From: a virus
Lineage: Duplodnaviria > Heunggongvirae > Uroviricota > Caudoviricetes
Direction: 5' to 3' (one strand)
IMG/VR virus record: IMGVR_UViG_3300000357_000189
DNA: 5,087 nucleotides
Positions 795-5,087 of this stretch are shown here, piece after piece (within the stretch, counting starts at the first letter, position 1; each line of letters begins with the position of its first letter). The notes below the pieces were generated by a model. That model saw only the letters and a list, made by a program, of their open reading frames with translations, had not been told where the DNA came from and searched no databases. Made by a program: the position numbers and the translations under genes.

Positions 795-983
795 GTGTTA
801 AGCACTGATCGGTTTATACGTGAAAAAGAATGCGAAAAACTAACCGGCCTTAGCCGTACGTGTCGCTACCGCCTGGAAAAGGCCGGACAATTCCCATCAC
901 GTCGTAAACTTGGCGGTCGTTCCGTTGGCTGGTCTTTATCCGAGGTTCTGGCCTGGAAGGATAGCTGCAAGGCAGTTCATTAA
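795..983 (+). CDS. alpA: AlpA-family (Vis/excisionase-like) small DNA-binding transcriptional regulator, 62 aa
   Basis: GTG start at 795 follows the Shine-Dalgarno AGGGGGG (784-789). Translation VLSTDRFIREKECEKLTGLSRTCRYRLEKAGQFPSRRKLGGRSVGWSLSEVLAWKDSCKAVH matches the AlpA pattern (HTH ...TGLSR.T.Y.L...FP...LG.RSVGW...E...W). The ORF-track start at ATG 714 has no RBS and would give an atypically long N-terminus. Position directly downstream of int is as in CP4-57/P4-like elements. Confidence 0.8.
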   Translation: MLSTDRFIREKECEKLTGLSRTCRYRLEKAGQFPSRRKLGGRSVGWSLSEVLAWKDSCKAVH

Positions 984-1040: not shown

Positions 1041-1212
1041 ATGAAGATTGAATATACGCCANNNNNNNNNNNNNNNNNNNNNNNNNNNNNNNNNNNNNNN
1101 NNNNNNNNNNNNNNNNNNNNNNNNNNNNNNNNNNNNNNNNNNNNNNNNNNNNNNNNNNNCGTTCGCCCTGGTGAAACTGAAAAACAACAAAATTGGGGTT
1201 TTTCAGGTATAA
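1041..1212 (+). CDS. Possible small hypothetical ORF (about 56 aa) spanning N-run 1062-1159; low confidence
   Basis: ATG at 1041 (MKIEYTP...) runs into the gap. After the gap a different frame reads ...[16 protein letters not shown] with stop TAA 1210-1212, immediately before the hairpin at 1218-1238. The SD is weak (GAG at 1030-1032). Continuity depends on a frame change across the N-run, which is seen at other gaps in this window. Confidence 0.2.
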
Positions 1213-1244
1213 AAAAAGCGGCCCCGAACTGGAGCCGCCTTTCT
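1211..1244 (-). terminator. Intrinsic (rho-independent) terminator for the leftward transcript; possibly weakly bidirectional
   Basis: Stem GCGGC(c)CC / GG(a)GCCGC (1218-1225 with 1231-1238) around loop GAACT (1226-1230). The A7 run 1211-1217 gives a U7 tract directly after the hairpin on the minus strand. On the + strand the hairpin is followed by CTTTCT (1239-1244). It lies about 90 nt downstream of the minus-strand stop at 1334-1336. Confidence 0.55.
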
Positions 1245-1333
1245 GAACAGATAACCCGCTGCGCCGTTTGTGTGTGTGATCCCAAACATAAGCACGGGGA
1301 TGATAGCCGTTATCAGGCTGGTGGGCAATGCAA

Positions 1334-1507
1334 TCAGTCTGGTTCAGTTCGTTGCCATACCTGCAATGAGCGCTTTTCCCTGTACTCTTTAAGGAATTGC
1401 TCAAGGGCAAAAGCACATGGCGCGAATCTTTCTGATTCATGCTCTATCTTTCTGCGCCGTCTTTTCCGTGCCGGTGATAATGTTTTGGTCAATTCTTTAT
1501 CGGTCAT
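1334..1507 (-). CDS. Small basic hypothetical protein, 57 aa from ATG 1507 (alternative start ATG 1522 gives 62 aa)
   Basis: Minus-strand translation [63 protein letters not shown] (complement of 1515-1518) sits 7 nt upstream of ATG 1507; the upstream ATG 1522 has no SD. It lies 57 nt downstream of the RHH gene and upstream of the terminator. Family not recognised. Confidence 0.55.
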
Positions 1508-1564
1508 TGTGTTGTCCTGCATAGCAATGCGCCGTAATACCTTACACCACGGCGCTGATGGTGA

Positions 1565-1744
1565 TTACTCTGGTTCTTTGGCCTTGCGCCGCTGGCGATA
1601 TTCAACTTCTCGTTTTAATGCCGCAGTAACAAATTGCCCCGTACTTTCGCCAGGCATTTTTACCGCCTCAACATTGTTCATAACTTCATGCGGAACCCTT
1701 GCCGCAACGGTTTGTGATTTTGCGTTTACCGCTTTTGTCGCCAT
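1565..1744 (-). CDS. Ribbon-helix-helix (Arc/MetJ/CopG-like) putative transcriptional repressor, 59 aa
   Basis: Minus-strand ORF below the ORF-track size cutoff: ATG at 1744-1742, stop TAA at 1567-1565. Translation [59 protein letters not shown]. The layout beta-strand ([10 protein letters not shown]), helix A (MNNVEAVK), G-x-S/T turn (PGEST) and helix B ([14 protein letters not shown]) fits an RHH fold. SD GAGGGG sits 8 nt upstream of the ATG. It is transcribed divergently from the palindrome-bearing promoter region. Confidence 0.65.
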
Positions 1745-1773: not shown

Positions 1774-1847
1774 AGTATGCAGGAAAAAAAATAAGTGTTC
1801 AACACTTGACGTGTTTAACACCTGGGTTTAAATTGGTGTTCAACACC
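1774..1847. promoter_or_regulatory. Divergent promoter/operator region with three GTGTT-N-AACAC palindromes overlapping sigma70-like promoter elements
   Basis: Palindromes at 1795-1805 (aaGTGTTcAACACtt), 1811-1821 (GTGTTtAACAC) and 1836-1846 (gGTGTTcAACACc). Rightward promoter: -35 TTGACG 1806-1811, 17-bp spacer, -10 TAAATT 1829-1834. Leftward promoter on the minus strand: -35 TTGAAC (complement of 1797-1802), 17-bp spacer, -10 CATACT (complement of 1774-1779). Operators overlap both -35 elements and the rightward +1 region. Confidence 0.55.
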
Positions 1848-1943: not shown

Positions 1944-2139
1944 ATGAGAAATCATACCACACACCCGCAAGGGCGGGACTCGCACAACCTGAATAAATAC
2001 ATNNNNNNNNNNNNNNNNNNNNGCACAACCGCGCGTGATTACCATTGAGGCCACCAGCGAACAGGAAGCACGCCAGCAATCTCCGGCTGGCTGCGTGATG
2101 GTATTTGCTGCCCGTATTCGTCAGGGGGTAGGCTTATGA
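1944..2139 (+). CDS. Hypothetical small protein, first gene of the rightward operon; spans N-run 2003-2022
   Basis: ATG 1944 follows SD GAGG (1935-1938): [19 protein letters not shown]... After the gap, another frame reads [38 protein letters not shown] with stop TGA 2137-2139 overlapping the next ATG (ATGA). The only frame open before the gap is the one containing ATG 1944. Confidence 0.45.
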
Positions 2140-2451: not shown

Positions 2452-2662
2452 AACCACACCGGACGCAGCCGCCGCCGCGCTCACTACGCTGATGCACGCG
2501 CTTATTGATATTTCTGTTATTGCTGACAGGGCGCATAAACACGCAGCCAGAGAATCAGAATGCATCTTCCATTTAGCATTTGTGCAGCTAAAAGCCGATC
2601 AGGCACTGGATAAGGCCGGAAAAATTATCATGGCTGATGTGCAGGAGGTGCACCATGCATAA
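2441..2662 (+). CDS. Hypothetical protein, 73 aa
   Basis: ATG 2441 follows SD GGAGGGG (2431-2437): MCNKTTPDAAAAALTTLMHALIDISVIADRAHKHAARESECIFHLAFVQLKADQALDKAGKIIMADVQEVHHA. The stop TAA 2660-2662 overlaps the next start (ATGCATAA). The ORF-track start at 2387 is less likely because it lacks an RBS. Confidence 0.6.
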   Translation: MCNKTTPDAAAAALTTLMHALIDISVIADRAHKHAARESECIFHLAFVQLKADQALDKAGKIIMADVQEVHHA

Positions 2663-3020
2663 TCTGTCAATTTCTGACCTTAACAGCATTCAGTTTGATG
2701 AGAAATTTACCGGGCAGTTGCTGGTCAATGTGGAGAACGGGCGCATAGTGCGTAATTATCACCTGCCGGATGGTGCAATTGCCGGAAGCGTTGAAGCATT
2801 GCTGGAACTGGCGGAACGTGCGCGACTGATTAAGCCGTCAACGAGCCATCACGATGATGATCTGCATTTTACCGGATGTATGGTGAGTCACTACGAAAAC
2901 GGCGTCGAGGTATCCTGTGAACGGCTGCGTGATGATTGCTGTTTCGGCACACTGCCGGAATTTATCGAGTTGCTGACCAGTTGCGGTTATCAGGTCATTC
3001 AGGGGGGTAAACATGCGTGA
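2655..3020 (+). CDS. Hypothetical protein, 121 aa, with a His/Cys-rich C-terminal half
   Basis: ATG 2655 follows SD GGAGGT (2644-2649): MHNLSISDLNSIQFDEKFTGQLLVNVENGRIVRNYHLPDGAIAGSVEALLELAERARLIKPSTSHHDDDLHFTGCMVSHYENGVEVSCERLRDDCCFGTLPEFIELLTSCGYQVIQGGKHA. Uninterrupted by N-runs. The stop TGA 3018-3020 overlaps the next ATG 3013. Confidence 0.65.
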   Translation: MHNLSISDLNSIQFDEKFTGQLLVNVENGRIVRNYHLPDGAIAGSVEALLELAERARLIKPSTSHHDDDLHFTGCMVSHYENGVEVSCERLRDDCCFGTLPEFIELLTSCGYQVIQGGKHA

Positions 3021-3331
3021 TGATCGTTTTAATTCCCTGAAACAGGAATTTTCCGGCGTTCCTGATGATGCGGCTGATGCGCTTTCGTCAATGCNNNNNN
3101 NNNNNNNNNNNNNNNNNNNNNNNNNNNNNNNNNNNNNNNNNNNNNNNNNNNNNNNNNNNNNNNNNNNNNNNNNNNNNNNNNNNNNNNATTAGAGCGGCTT
3201 TTTTCTTACTTTCCACGAGAGAATATAAATCAACGGGGCTTGATGTACTGAATATCGCCGCCGATTATGCGGAATATGTGGCAGAGGCGCGTTATAGAAG
3301 AAAATTTCCTGAGGATGTAAGCCATGCGTGA
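3013..3331 (+). CDS. Hypothetical protein (about 105 aa); spans N-run 3095-3187
   Basis: ATG 3013 follows SD AGGGGGG (3001-3007): MRDDRFNSLKQEFSGVPDDAADALSSM... After the gap: IRAAFFLLSTREYKSTGLDVLNIAADYAEYVAEARYRRKFPEDVSHA with stop TGA 3329-3331 overlapping the next ATG 3324. Two separate short genes cannot be excluded. Confidence 0.45.
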
Positions 3332-3645
3332 TATTTACCACGAAACAATAGACCGCGCATTTCTTGCACTTTCTCACAGTGAAAACATGCTGGAAATATT
3401 GCGNNNNNNNNNNNNNNNNNNNNNNNNNNNNNNNNNNNNNNNNNNNNNNNNNNNNNNNNNNNNNNNNNNNNNNNNNNNNNNNNNNNNNNNNNNNNNNGCT
3501 TGAAACACTTGGCGACAATGAACGCGACAAACAAAAATCAAGAATTGCCACGGCATTAATAACGCTTCTTGAGCCTGTAATAATGGAACTGCAAGAAATA
3601 GATCTATTGCACGACAGATATAAAGAACAGCACACCGGAGAATAA
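3324..3645 (+). CDS. Hypothetical protein (about 105 aa); spans N-run 3404-3497
   Basis: ATG 3324 follows SD GAGGA (3311-3315): MRDIYHETIDRAFLALSHSENMLEILR... After the gap: LETLGDNERDKQKSRIATALITLLEPVIMELQEIDLLHDRYKEQHTGE with stop TAA 3643-3645. The frame differs across the gap. Confidence 0.45.
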
Positions 3646-3650
3646 AAATA

Positions 3651-4035
3651 ATGAAACTTAAATATTCTGGCTTAACTGCCAGTGGCAACACTCACCCTAA
3701 ATTTACGCGCGGCGATATTTACCGCGACCAGTACGGCGGCACGGTAATGATTAAGGGCGTGGAAGAACGGCGCGTAACCTACCGCCGTGAAGGTTACGAA
3801 TATGATTGCGTGATGCCTGTTTATCAGTTCCGGCGTGATTTTTCTCTGGTACAGACCGCGCCGCATAACGTGTCCACCAGCAACGCCAGGGCACGGGCAA
3901 ACATCCAGAAGCTGAAAACCATGATTAACGGANNNNNNNNNNNNNNNNNNNNNNNNNNNNNNNNNNNNNNNNNNNNNNNNNNNNNNNNNNNNNNNNNNNN
4001 NNNNNNNNNNNNNNNNNNNNNNNNGTAAAAAATGA
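3651..4035 (+). CDS. Hypothetical protein (about 125 aa); 3' end within or just after N-run 3933-4024
   Basis: ATG 3651 follows SD GGAG (3637-3640): MKLKYSGLTASGNTHPKFTRGDIYRDQYGGTVMIKGVEERRVTYRREGYEYDCVMPVYQFRRDFSLVQTAPHNVSTSNARARANIQKLKTMING... After the gap, either TAA 4026-4028 or TGA 4033-4035 is the stop; the latter overlaps ATG 4032 as ATGA, like other junctions in this operon. Confidence 0.55.
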
Positions 4036-5087
4036 AACTGGCACCGAACGTAAAACAGCAGTCACGCGGCATAAAACACAAAGAAACAGAAGTCATTATT
4101 TTTGCGGGTAGTGATGCCTGGTCACACGCAAAACAATGGCAGGAACATGACGCGCGTATGGCCGGAGATAATGAGCCTCCTGTGTGGCTTGGGGAGCAGC
4201 AGTTATCCGAACTGGATAAGCTGCAAATTGTGCCNNNNNNNNNNNNNNNNNNNNNNNNNNNNNNNNNNNNNNNNNNNNNNNNNNNNNNNNNNNNNNNNNN
4301 NNNNNNNNNNNNNNNNNNNNNNNNNNNNNNNNCGCATATTCAGGGCCGGATATCTTGCGCCAGTAATGATAAAGGCGATTGGTCAGAAGCTGGCGGCAGC
4401 AGGCGTACAGGATGCAAATTTTTACCCTGATGGTATGCACGGTCAGAAGGTGGAGAACTGGCGCGAATATCTGGCCCGTGAGCGCCAGAATCTTTCTGAT
4501 GGTCTGGTCATTGAGCTTCCGGTAAAGCAAAAGGCGCAACTTTCGCAGATGGCGGANNNNNNNNNNNNNNNNNNNNNNNNNNNNNNNNNNNNNNNNNNNN
4601 NNNNNNNNNNNNNNNNNNNNNNNNNNNNNNNNNNNNNNNNNNNGCGCGCAGCTGCTTGCCGATCGCTTTGATGGCGTTTGCGTACATCCTGAAAGTGAAA
4701 TCGTTCACGTATGGCGCGGCGGGGTATGGTGTCCGGTCAGCACAATGGAACTTAGCCGCGAAATGGTGGCGATCTATTCAGAGCACAGGGCCACTTTCAG
4801 CAAGCGCGTAATCAATAACGCCGTGGAAGCGTTAAAAGTTATTGCCGAACCAATGGGCGAGCCGTCCGGCGATTTGTTGCCGTTCGNNNNNNNNNNNNNN
4901 NNNNNNNNNNNNNNNNNNNNNNNNNNNNNNNNNNNNNNNNNNNNNNNNNNNNNNNNNNNNNNNNNNNNNNNNATGGTGCGCTTGACCTGAAAACGGGGGA
5001 ATTTTCCCCGCACACGCCGGAGAACTGGATCACCACGCACAACGGCATTGAGTACACGCCACCAGCACCAGGGGAGAACATCCGCGA
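4032..5087 (+). CDS. Primase/helicase-type replication protein (P4-family primase / D5_N-like region), 3' end outside window; interrupted by N-runs 4235-4332, 4557-4643 and 4887-4972. The first segment (4032-4234) could be a separate upstream ORF.
   Basis: Coding-looking segments in successive frames: MKLAPNVKQQSRGIKHKETEVIIFAGSDAWSHAKQWQEHDARMAGDNEPPVWLGEQQLSELDKLQIV (4032-4234); ...YLAPVMIKAIGQKLAAAGVQDANFYPDGMHGQKVENWREYLARERQNLSDGLVIELPVKQKAQLSQMA (4333-4556); AQLLADRFDGVCVHPESEIVHVWRGGVWCPVSTMELSREMVAIYSEHRATFSKRVINNAVEALKVIAEPMGEPSGDLLPF (4646-4886); GALDLKTGEFSPHTPENWITTHNGIEYTPPAPGENIR (4975-5085). LADRF...W..W and G.LDL.TGE..PH.PE motifs are, from memory, characteristic of the D5_N / P4-type primase C-terminal region. 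Confidence 0.6.

Follow-up and report, generated by a model that had tools for sequence, protein, structure and literature searches.

The 5,087-nucleotide (nt) stretch of viral DNA considered here (IMG/VR record IMGVR_UViG_3300000357_000189; “the window” means this whole stretch) carries, between the activator gene alpA and an icd-like gene, a compact module of two genes that are read leftward, on the minus strand. The gene nearer to the icd-like gene, at 1565-1744, encodes a 59-amino-acid (aa) protein of the YlcI/YnfO family and is a candidate immunity repressor with a ribbon-helix-helix (RHH) fold; the gene behind it, at 1334-1507, encodes a small helical protein of 57 aa with a core of 17 residues and appears to be an accessory partner gene. 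The gene order of the window is int, alpA, the leftward module and then an icd-like/primase operon, and judged from its sequence the window is a phage-inducible chromosomal island (PICI) of Escherichia coli of the EcCICFT073 type. Positions 1160-2003 match the chromosome of E. coli EcPF5 with 100% identity, and the annotated neighbourhood there comprises an integrase, an AlpA-type regulator, the module, an icd-like gene, several small open reading frames (ORFs), DUF4222, a primase, SSB, and capsid and decoration genes, and it is this combination of int, alpA, icd-like, primase and capsid genes that points to a PICI. Among 5,426 complete E. coli genomes, about 1,800 contain related sequence, and the experimentally studied island EcCICFT073 has the same module, with the leftward genes annotated as C_RS30120 and C_RS30800, the latter being the small gene. 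The runs of N in the window (1062-1159, 2003-2022 and others) are not true to length, 98 N standing for 17 nt and 20 N for 25 nt, so that ORF coordinates and frames which cross the masks are unreliable in the window; because of this distortion the unmasked locus L001 was used, in which the window coordinate between 1160 and 2003 equals the L001 coordinate minus 6841.

Two ORFs were found on the minus strand of the module, one at 1565-1744 (59 aa) and the other at 1334-1522 (62 aa), the latter containing a further ATG, at 1507, from which the 57-aa product would start. As read from the sequence, the ATG at 1744 has the Shine-Dalgarno (SD) site GAGGGG 8 nt upstream, and the ATG at 1507 has AGGA 7 nt upstream. 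The operon ends at an intrinsic minus-strand terminator at 1211-1243, a hairpin of 12-13 bp followed by U7 with a folding energy of -22.4 kcal/mol (z -4.1) that was equalled by none of 200 shuffles; the same DNA read on the plus strand folds weakly (-14.6 kcal/mol, z = -2.0) and has no U run, and other loci have non-homologous hairpins of the same polarity at this position. An earlier reading of this DNA, referred to below as the first-pass annotation, had proposed the two ORFs, their SD sites, a terminator common to both genes and a set of palindromes upstream, and all of these are present where it placed them, the common terminator being the hairpin that runs from 1243 to 1211. The genes are separated by an intercistronic spacer of 57 nt (1508-1564, minus strand), which contains the hairpin GCGCCGT...ACGGCGC and the AGG(A) ribosome site of the small gene. 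This spacer is conserved, with the same length and a nearly identical sequence behind RHH genes that encode the short form of YlcI, its long form or an Arc-like protein, and it may serve in processing, stability or attenuation.

Upstream of ylcI the sequence suggests a leftward promoter, P_L, at 1774-1802 (minus strand), with a -35 element TTGAAC that lies within the first of three operators and a -10 element CATACT (1779-1774). The -10 motif of P_L, cAGTATAc/cAATATAc, is the sole conserved motif in the left half of every divergent spacer, for all spacer types. On the plus strand, a promoter scan identified a rightward promoter of the sigma-70 type, P_R (TTGACG-17 nt-TAAATT, 1806-1834), which is bracketed by the operators O1 to O3.

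The product of the first gene, YlcI, matches the NCBIfam model NF041551 over residues 9-50 with 59.7 bits (cut-off 30) and an E-value of 2e-16, in agreement with the PGAP gene name, which places it in the YlcI/YnfO family, and it matches phrog_949 with an E-value of 9e-22; the Pfam model DUF3950 matches just 1 of 35 YlcI homologues. The E. coli K-12 proteins after which the family is named, YlcI (DLP12) and YnfO (Qin), have the N-terminal 42-residue domain modelled by NF041551 in common with the window protein. In the alignment of the family M1, A2, T3, N7, K9, S10, R16, P18, H19 and the triplet G32-E33-S34 are near-invariant, and residues 11-15, which lie within the predicted DNA-reading strand, are hypervariable. 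An AlphaFold model of the monomer, built from 35 homologues with a predicted local distance difference test score (pLDDT) of 78, consists of an extended N-terminus followed by two helices, which is the beta-alpha-alpha fold of about 45 residues that characterizes the RHH superfamily; by this model, which matches RHH repressors, YlcI is an RHH protein. Several searches nevertheless weigh against the assignment. No significant match of the window protein to an RHH family was found in Pfam, the matches of a few homologues to such families are weak (PSK_trans_fac 0.017, CB_ParB_C 0.15, HicB_lk 0.22), an hhalign comparison with Arc returned a probability of 5%, a profile search against the solved structures of the PDB came back empty, and Foldseek found nothing. 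The label “RHH-like”, which the first-pass annotation had attached to this gene, is therefore borne out by the fold of the AlphaFold model and not by the profile searches. The family also includes a long form of YlcI (101 aa), in which a 42-residue insert stands ahead of a conserved RRKAKE tail, and a search of a phage collection gave one weak YlcI match, in a 16.5-kb “induced prophage”.

The evidence that bears most directly on the role of YlcI lies in the DNA between the two divergent promoters. The palindrome GTGTTYAACAC occurs exactly at 1795-1805, 1811-1821 and 1836-1846, compared to 0.11 occurrences expected by chance, and these three sites are taken as the operators O1, O2 and O3 (1795-1846), of the general form GTG-N5-CAC, on the basis of fixed offsets and covariation. 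The divergent spacer is very variable in sequence, yet GTG-N5-CAC is always present in it three times, and in some cases a fourth time. Counted from the ylcI ATG, the copies stand at fixed offsets of about 21 or 50, 66 and 91 nt, and the TTGAC of the -35 element is found at offset 61 in nearly all loci. The operators at offsets 66 and 91 bracket the -10 element of P_R at invariant distances in more than 40 loci.

The central five nucleotides of GTG-N5-CAC change in step with YlcI residues 11-15; about 12 specificity classes can be told apart, over more than 12 genera, and the same beta strand is paired with the same operator across genera. Strands of the form QT(V/I/L)AA occur with GTGTTCAACAC in E. 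coli, Salmonella, Klebsiella, Serratia, Pectobacterium, Edwardsiella and Kosakonia; KKLEA occurs with GTGGCTGACAC in Proteus and in 10 Xenorhabdus loci; KRIDA and KRFDV occur with GTGTCCGACAC in E. coli and Salmonella, KRFDV also in Leclercia and Pectobacterium; QALKA and QSLKS occur with GTGGGCCACAC in E. coli and Dryocola, QSLKS also in Yokenella; and QSVTA and QSLTA occur with GTGTAAGACAC in E. coli. The same pairings came up, together with new classes, in a blind set of 31 loci from species representatives. The capacity of the RHH strand to read bases was judged through this covariation alone.

With strand and operators linked in this way, it is very probable that YlcI represses the rightward operon and serves as immunity repressor of the island, an assignment that is strong for a computational result. 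The first-pass annotation had proposed that the protein represses the rightward operon at the palindromes of 1795-1846, and the covariation of operator and beta strand favours precisely this role. We infer binding, repression and autoregulation from the sequence, the silencing of P_R and the autoregulation from the placement of the operators over P_R and of O1 over the -35 element of P_L. A YlcI dimer would read the central five bases of O1-O3 with its N-terminal beta strand (residues 11-15); because the operators sit beside the -35 element, between the -35 and -10 elements, and at the start site of P_R, its binding would silence P_R, and because O1 overlaps the -35 element of P_L, YlcI would also regulate its own synthesis. 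The effect would be to silence the icd-like/primase replication operon and so to keep the island quiescent.

Three observations argue the other way. P_L failed a consensus promoter scan, so that it is proposed from its motifs. In published work (PMC6092414), AlpA switches on its own promoter as well as a reporter inserted in the gene that follows alpA, AlpA by itself is enough to induce EcCICFT073, and the published model requires no repressor. Finally, the prototype capsid-forming PICI, EcCIEDL933, has no ylcI and carries another RHH-like ORF in the same slot. In EDL933 this is an unannotated 63-aa Arc/HicB-like RHH ORF at 2867-3058 of locus L015 (minus strand), whose match to HicB (E 5e-4) is just under the cut-off; two GTGGTCACC sites lie beside a promoter in EcCIEDL933, and RefSeq annotates a 247-aa plus-strand ORF there instead of the leftward RHH ORF. 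One further operator look-alike in the window, GTGTTAAGCAC at 795-805, has one mismatch and coincides with the GTG start of alpA; it is conserved alpA coding sequence that does not change with the ylcI allele, and is probably a chance occurrence. The searchable literature contained nothing on the function of YlcI, YnfO or DUF3950, described no RHH repressor in E. coli PICIs, and held nothing on an ORF that overlaps the module on the plus strand.

The second leftward ORF is, by the pattern of its conservation, a real protein-coding gene, as the first-pass annotation had supposed. It is present in 15 of 15 E. coli loci, with 44-100% aa identity and an ATG at a constant position, unlike the upstream ATG at 1522, which is not conserved in these loci; its ribosome site is conserved, its indels are in-frame and its core is invariant. 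Its ratio of nonsynonymous to synonymous substitution rates (dN/dS) is 0.15-0.6, but this measure cannot decide between the strands because the plus-strand frame shares its third codon positions with both leftward genes. dN/dS was therefore dropped as a strand discriminator, and the quality of amino acid replacements together with the resampling of synonymous codons was used instead. The mean BLOSUM62 score of the replacements is -0.08 in the small gene (35% positive) and +0.12 in ylcI, which served as the control (44% positive), as against -1.18 in the plus-strand frame (10% positive). Since replacements are conservative in the leftward frame and radical in the plus frame, the leftward frame is indicated as the coding strand.

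The family to which the small protein belongs is narrow. A deep profile search among 1.8 billion representatives returned just 9 clusters, one of them a chance match to a repeat protein, and thus gave no remote link to a known family. Residues 1-45 match phrog_21027, which has no assigned function, with an E-value of 1e-15; Pfam, NCBIfam and PADLOC gave no match, and hence no toxin or defence family, and the protein was not found in the phage collection. An AlphaFold2 model consists of two helices (pLDDT 71), with the best confidence over the conserved core. The RKRRRRK tract, which the first-pass annotation had singled out as a sign of nucleic-acid binding, is replaced by TNREHEN in one allele group and lies at the C-terminus in a distant member, so that the 17-residue core, and not the tract, is the conserved part of the protein. 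The product is most likely a cytoplasmic, mostly helical protein that would make protein-protein contacts through its conserved amphipathic helix; this mechanism is a low-confidence guess, given the modest score of the model and the lack of a known role for the matched families, which counts against the present interpretation of the operon.

Within E. coli the small gene always stands behind an RHH gene after the conserved 57-nt spacer, and the gene it follows may be ylcI, the long form of ylcI or, in EcCIEDL933, an unrelated Arc/HicB-like gene. The family is confined to E. coli and absent beside ylcI in other genera, and in Klebsiella an unrelated 84-aa gene follows ylcI. Because ylcI is monocistronic and has its own terminator outside E. 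coli, repression by YlcI would not need the small protein. From this distribution the small gene appears to be an accessory partner in a slot that is co-expressed with the repressor, and not a toxin. Tandem double cassettes, each made up of an RHH gene, the 57-nt spacer and a small partner, occur at 2615-3866 of locus L010 and at the equivalent places of L002 and L008; the second partner in L010 (75 aa) retains only the motif FALEDFVDKY.

Three other explanations of the leftward module have to be considered alongside this one. The small ORF might be untranslated, its openness and low dN/dS being by-products of constraint on the plus frame: the shared third positions mean that dN/dS and in-frame indels cannot separate the frames, a shadow frame would be open by chance given the protein sequence with P of about 0.7, and the genome that matches the window exactly has no annotation of the ORF. 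Against this stand the ATG at one conserved position with an AGG ribosome site and a non-conserved ATG upstream, the invariant core and conservative replacements that give the same signature as the ylcI control, a divergent paralogue that keeps FALExF(L/V)xKY and is likewise separated by 57 nt from the second RHH gene that it follows, and the annotation of the ORF by PGAP in CFT073 and other genomes, and an untranslated ORF is in consequence judged improbable. The first-pass annotation had also offered the alternative of a type II toxin-antitoxin pair, with an RHH antitoxin and a 57-aa basic toxin, which is very unlikely because the small gene and ylcI are not co-inherited: at least five other genera (Salmonella, Proteus, Xenorhabdus, Serratia, Pectobacterium) have ylcI as a monocistronic gene that ends at a terminator of its own, ylcI occurs without the small gene also in Dryocola, and an identical small protein follows ylcI alleles that are just 60% identical as well as the unrelated, non-homologous RHH gene of EDL933. 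Moreover, only about 9 residues of YlcI follow helix 2, which is too few for a toxin-binding tail, the genes lie 57 nt apart without overlap, and the small protein resembles no toxin in the family searches. A third alternative accepts that YlcI binds the repeats and assigns the binding to partition or a centromere, in the manner of ParG or omega, or to replication control, instead of to the repression of P_R. This is quite unlikely, since more than 40 loci have two sites placed, at distances that do not vary, on either side of the -10 element of a good sigma-70 promoter, no partition ATPase is encoded nearby, the element is integrated, and omega is itself a transcriptional repressor.

The most unusual feature of the locus is the stop-free frame on the plus strand opposite the module, which in most loci stays open across the promoter, the operators and both leftward genes. 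It extends over 1041-2139, from just after alpA into the icd-like gene, and measures 340 aa in the unmasked sequence, where it runs in frame into that gene; in the masked window it appears as a 335-aa ORF ending at 2048. Upstream of the icd ATG, 13 of the 15 E. coli loci have 150-600 codons of uninterrupted icd frame, and the same holds for Proteus, Xenorhabdus, Pectobacterium, Serratia and Dryocola. Eleven diverged spacers contain no stops in the icd frame, compared to 54 and 74 in the other two plus frames, with a shuffle P of 0.005-0.05 for each stop-free spacer, and each of the ten spacer lengths observed leaves a remainder of 1 on division by 3, which puts ylcI in the antisense phase that constrains it least. 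Among 167 codons that precede CAN or TAN, none ends in the base that would create a stop in the plus frame; in synonymous-codon resampling the openness within the genes was, taken alone, just moderately unlikely, at about 0.4-0.5 per ylcI allele. In an independent sample at the species level, 9 of 13 loci lacked stops and had the frame open through ylcI; the stop totals for the three frames were 10, 86 and 46. The open frame usually starts at the end of the upstream rightward gene, and at eight loci it does so with a strong SD site and an ATG that overlaps the stop of that gene; in loci that break the icd frame, another plus frame or a relay of overlapping ORFs spans the interval and ends 18-29 nt before icd.

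The protein that this frame would specify is not conserved. Its translation is rich in Cys and Ser and is unrelated between loci wherever the opposite strand differs, and the Icd profile covers just the last 48 of the 340 residues (matching residues 293-336). The first-pass annotation had dismissed the ORF as spurious, a view that holds for the protein sequence, which is not under selection as judged by its radical replacements, and that fails for the openness of the frame, which is kept across many genera. PGAP labels window positions 1122-1569 on the plus strand (L001 7963-8410) as a pseudogene of a “host cell division inhibitor Icd-like protein”; this label is an artefact passed on from one annotation to the next, and it hides the small leftward gene. 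In CFT073 the N-terminus of the long plus-strand ORF contains a remnant of an Ant/BRO-N antirepressor (L027 7767-8240, plus strand; phrog_130, E 1e-5), and other loci have intact BRO-N or AntA genes at the position of the remnant.

The stop-free frame suggests translated read-through from alpA, whose transcript is the likely source. That the frame has been selected for its translatability and not for its product, as a ribosome conduit into icd, is a possibility that we put forward tentatively and regard as somewhat less likely than not. In outline, AlpA-driven read-through transcripts would be translated from the end of alpA (or of ant/bro) into icd, along a path that is antisense to the terminator, the small gene, the repressor gene, the operators and the structured icd leader. 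Being translated, such transcripts would escape Rho-dependent termination; they would not be subject to the RHH repressor at P_R or to a block, if any, that acts on the icd ribosome site at the RNA level, and would also interfere with transcription of the repressor. In phage P1, translation of icd governs Rho-dependent polarity, and the read-through proposal draws on this precedent together with the activation by AlpA of the gene that follows alpA. It is weakened by the absence of a marked excess of C over G (a rut-like skew) in the plus-strand RNA, which is accordingly not used as support, by the lack of an SD site before the first ATG in L001 and CFT073, and by several loci in which the icd frame is interrupted and a different frame or an ORF relay would have to take over.

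Two competing accounts take the plus frame to be open because of the protein it encodes. In the more radical of them the long ORF is the sole real gene and the leftward ORFs are its shadows, as might be argued from a frame that is open in nearly all loci and has SD and ATG starts, and from the pieces of it that PGAP and other callers have annotated (the “Icd-like” pseudogene, a 247-aa hypothetical protein and calls of 158-195 aa). Its probability is close to negligible: the plus-frame replacements are radical (BLOSUM62 about -1.1, 9-10% positive) and those in the leftward frames conservative (about 0, 35-44% positive), the Icd profile is limited to the C-terminal end, the translation, rich in Cys and Ser, is unrelated from locus to locus where the opposite strand differs, and YlcI has an independent family, fold and set of co-varying operators. 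In the other account the frame is free of stops because an N-terminally extended Icd isoform is the functional read-through product. The continuity of the frame with icd in most loci and the conserved phase, with spacers of 1 mod 3, are what would be expected, but in EDL933, Klebsiella, Salmonella and some GTDB loci the long ORF lies in another frame and terminates 18-29 nt short of the icd start, or overlapping ORFs form a relay, and no sequence is conserved in the extension. A long Icd isoform is thus unlikely, and a weaker alternative to translated read-through. The best joint explanation, which we consider probable, is that of a leftward two-gene immunity operon, consisting of an RHH repressor and an accessory gene, with a proposed translated read-through on the opposite strand.

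The leader of the icd-like gene has a structure of its own. The segment 1866-1946 folds with -36.5 kcal/mol (z -6.2) on the minus strand and -20.5 kcal/mol (z -2.2) on the plus strand; the second hairpin in the segment is conserved, 10 of its 14 pairs showing compensatory changes, and G-U pairs favour the minus strand, in 262 versus 232 of 279 cells. An Rfam SymR-like match on the strand opposite icd is sub-threshold (33 bits, gathering score 61), and an extended -10 element, TGgTATGAT, lies on the minus strand at 1959-1951. The minus strand of the segment (L001 8707-8787) may specify a cis-antisense RNA over the icd leader and its ribosome site. No C4 RNA (Rfam RF01695) was detected by cmscan with E up to 1 over the 7 kb of L001 6000-13000.

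Of the genes that flank the module, alpA (795-983, plus strand; Pfam PF05930, E 5e-17) is the island's activator, a role taken from the literature (PMC6092414), and the icd-like gene (1944-2139, plus strand; NCBIfam NF033153, E 1e-19; PGAP WP_001375911.1) is the first of the rightward operon. The window also contains four Chi sites (GCTGGTGG) in 5 kb, compared to 0.14 expected, at 1317-1324 on the plus strand and at 2051-2058, 3874-3881 and 5059-5066 on the minus strand. The first of these lies just beyond the stop of the small ORF and is kept in all E. coli loci, two of which have a second copy.

By analogy, the arrangement would work like the immI region of phage P22 and occupies the position of SaPI Stl, while belonging to neither family. 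The P22 immI region has the RHH repressors Mnt and Arc, the divergent promoters Pmnt and Pant, and the sar antisense RNA. The present system differs from it in that the repressor family is YlcI/YnfO/DUF3950, without a significant Pfam match to Arc, in that there are three operators at fixed spacing where P22 has one each, in that the target operon begins with an icd-like gene and replication genes, in that the host element is a satellite controlled by AlpA, and in that a stop-free antisense frame crosses the whole module. The first-pass annotation had likened the position to that of the SaPI stl gene or a lambda-type immunity region, an analogy that holds well: like Stl, or Rpr in Gram-positive PICIs (PMC6092414), ylcI lies between int and the replication operon, is divergent, and has a presumed role in quiescence. 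The Stl proteins, however, are large helix-turn-helix repressors that are removed by helper-phage proteins, in contrast to the 59-aa RHH protein here, and int and alpA in the present island point the other way, with induction reported through AlpA and no known interaction with an antirepressor. Measured against a PICI master repressor, the position and the operators over P_R fit, and the literature reports AlpA-dependent induction.

A second set of likenesses concerns the controlled operon and the accessory slot. As in the immI regions of P1 and P7 (c4 antisense RNA, icd, ant) and the CI RNA immunity of P4, the controlled operon begins with an icd-like gene, and the P1 logic, in which translation of icd decides by way of Rho-dependent polarity whether transcription continues, is the logic proposed for the open frame. 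Unlike those systems, the island has no C4/CI RNA match in the 7 kb searched, its control would include a protein repressor, and its structured leader element favours the opposite strand. The leftward operon also resembles cI-rexAB of lambda, where a variable cargo gene lies between repressor and terminator and is expressed in the quiescent state; the cargo slot here is filled in E. coli by the 57-aa gene and in Klebsiella by the unrelated 84-aa gene, and it is empty in other genera. It differs in that the cargo is a predicted soluble helical protein without a known exclusion function, and in that the 57-nt spacer is unusually conserved.

Gram-negative PICIs, including those that form capsids, are major vehicles of gene transfer, and their published regulatory model contains an activator, AlpA, and no repressor (Fillol-Salom et al.), the repressor of such islands having been described as unclear. 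The module described here, which is present in the reference element EcCICFT073, supplies a concrete candidate for such a repressor, and the recognition code that relates YlcI residues 11-15 to the operator centre predicts immunity groups among satellites. The repressor role, which is very probable, would give a function to the uncharacterised YlcI/YnfO/DUF3950 family, and the analysis exposes propagated annotation errors, namely the “Icd-like” pseudogene and long hypothetical proteins on the wrong strand. If the translated read-through path is also correct, the plus-strand frame would be a rare case of an ORF that is conserved for its openness alone, and the island would illustrate a novel means by which a mobile element overcomes the repressor that it encodes.

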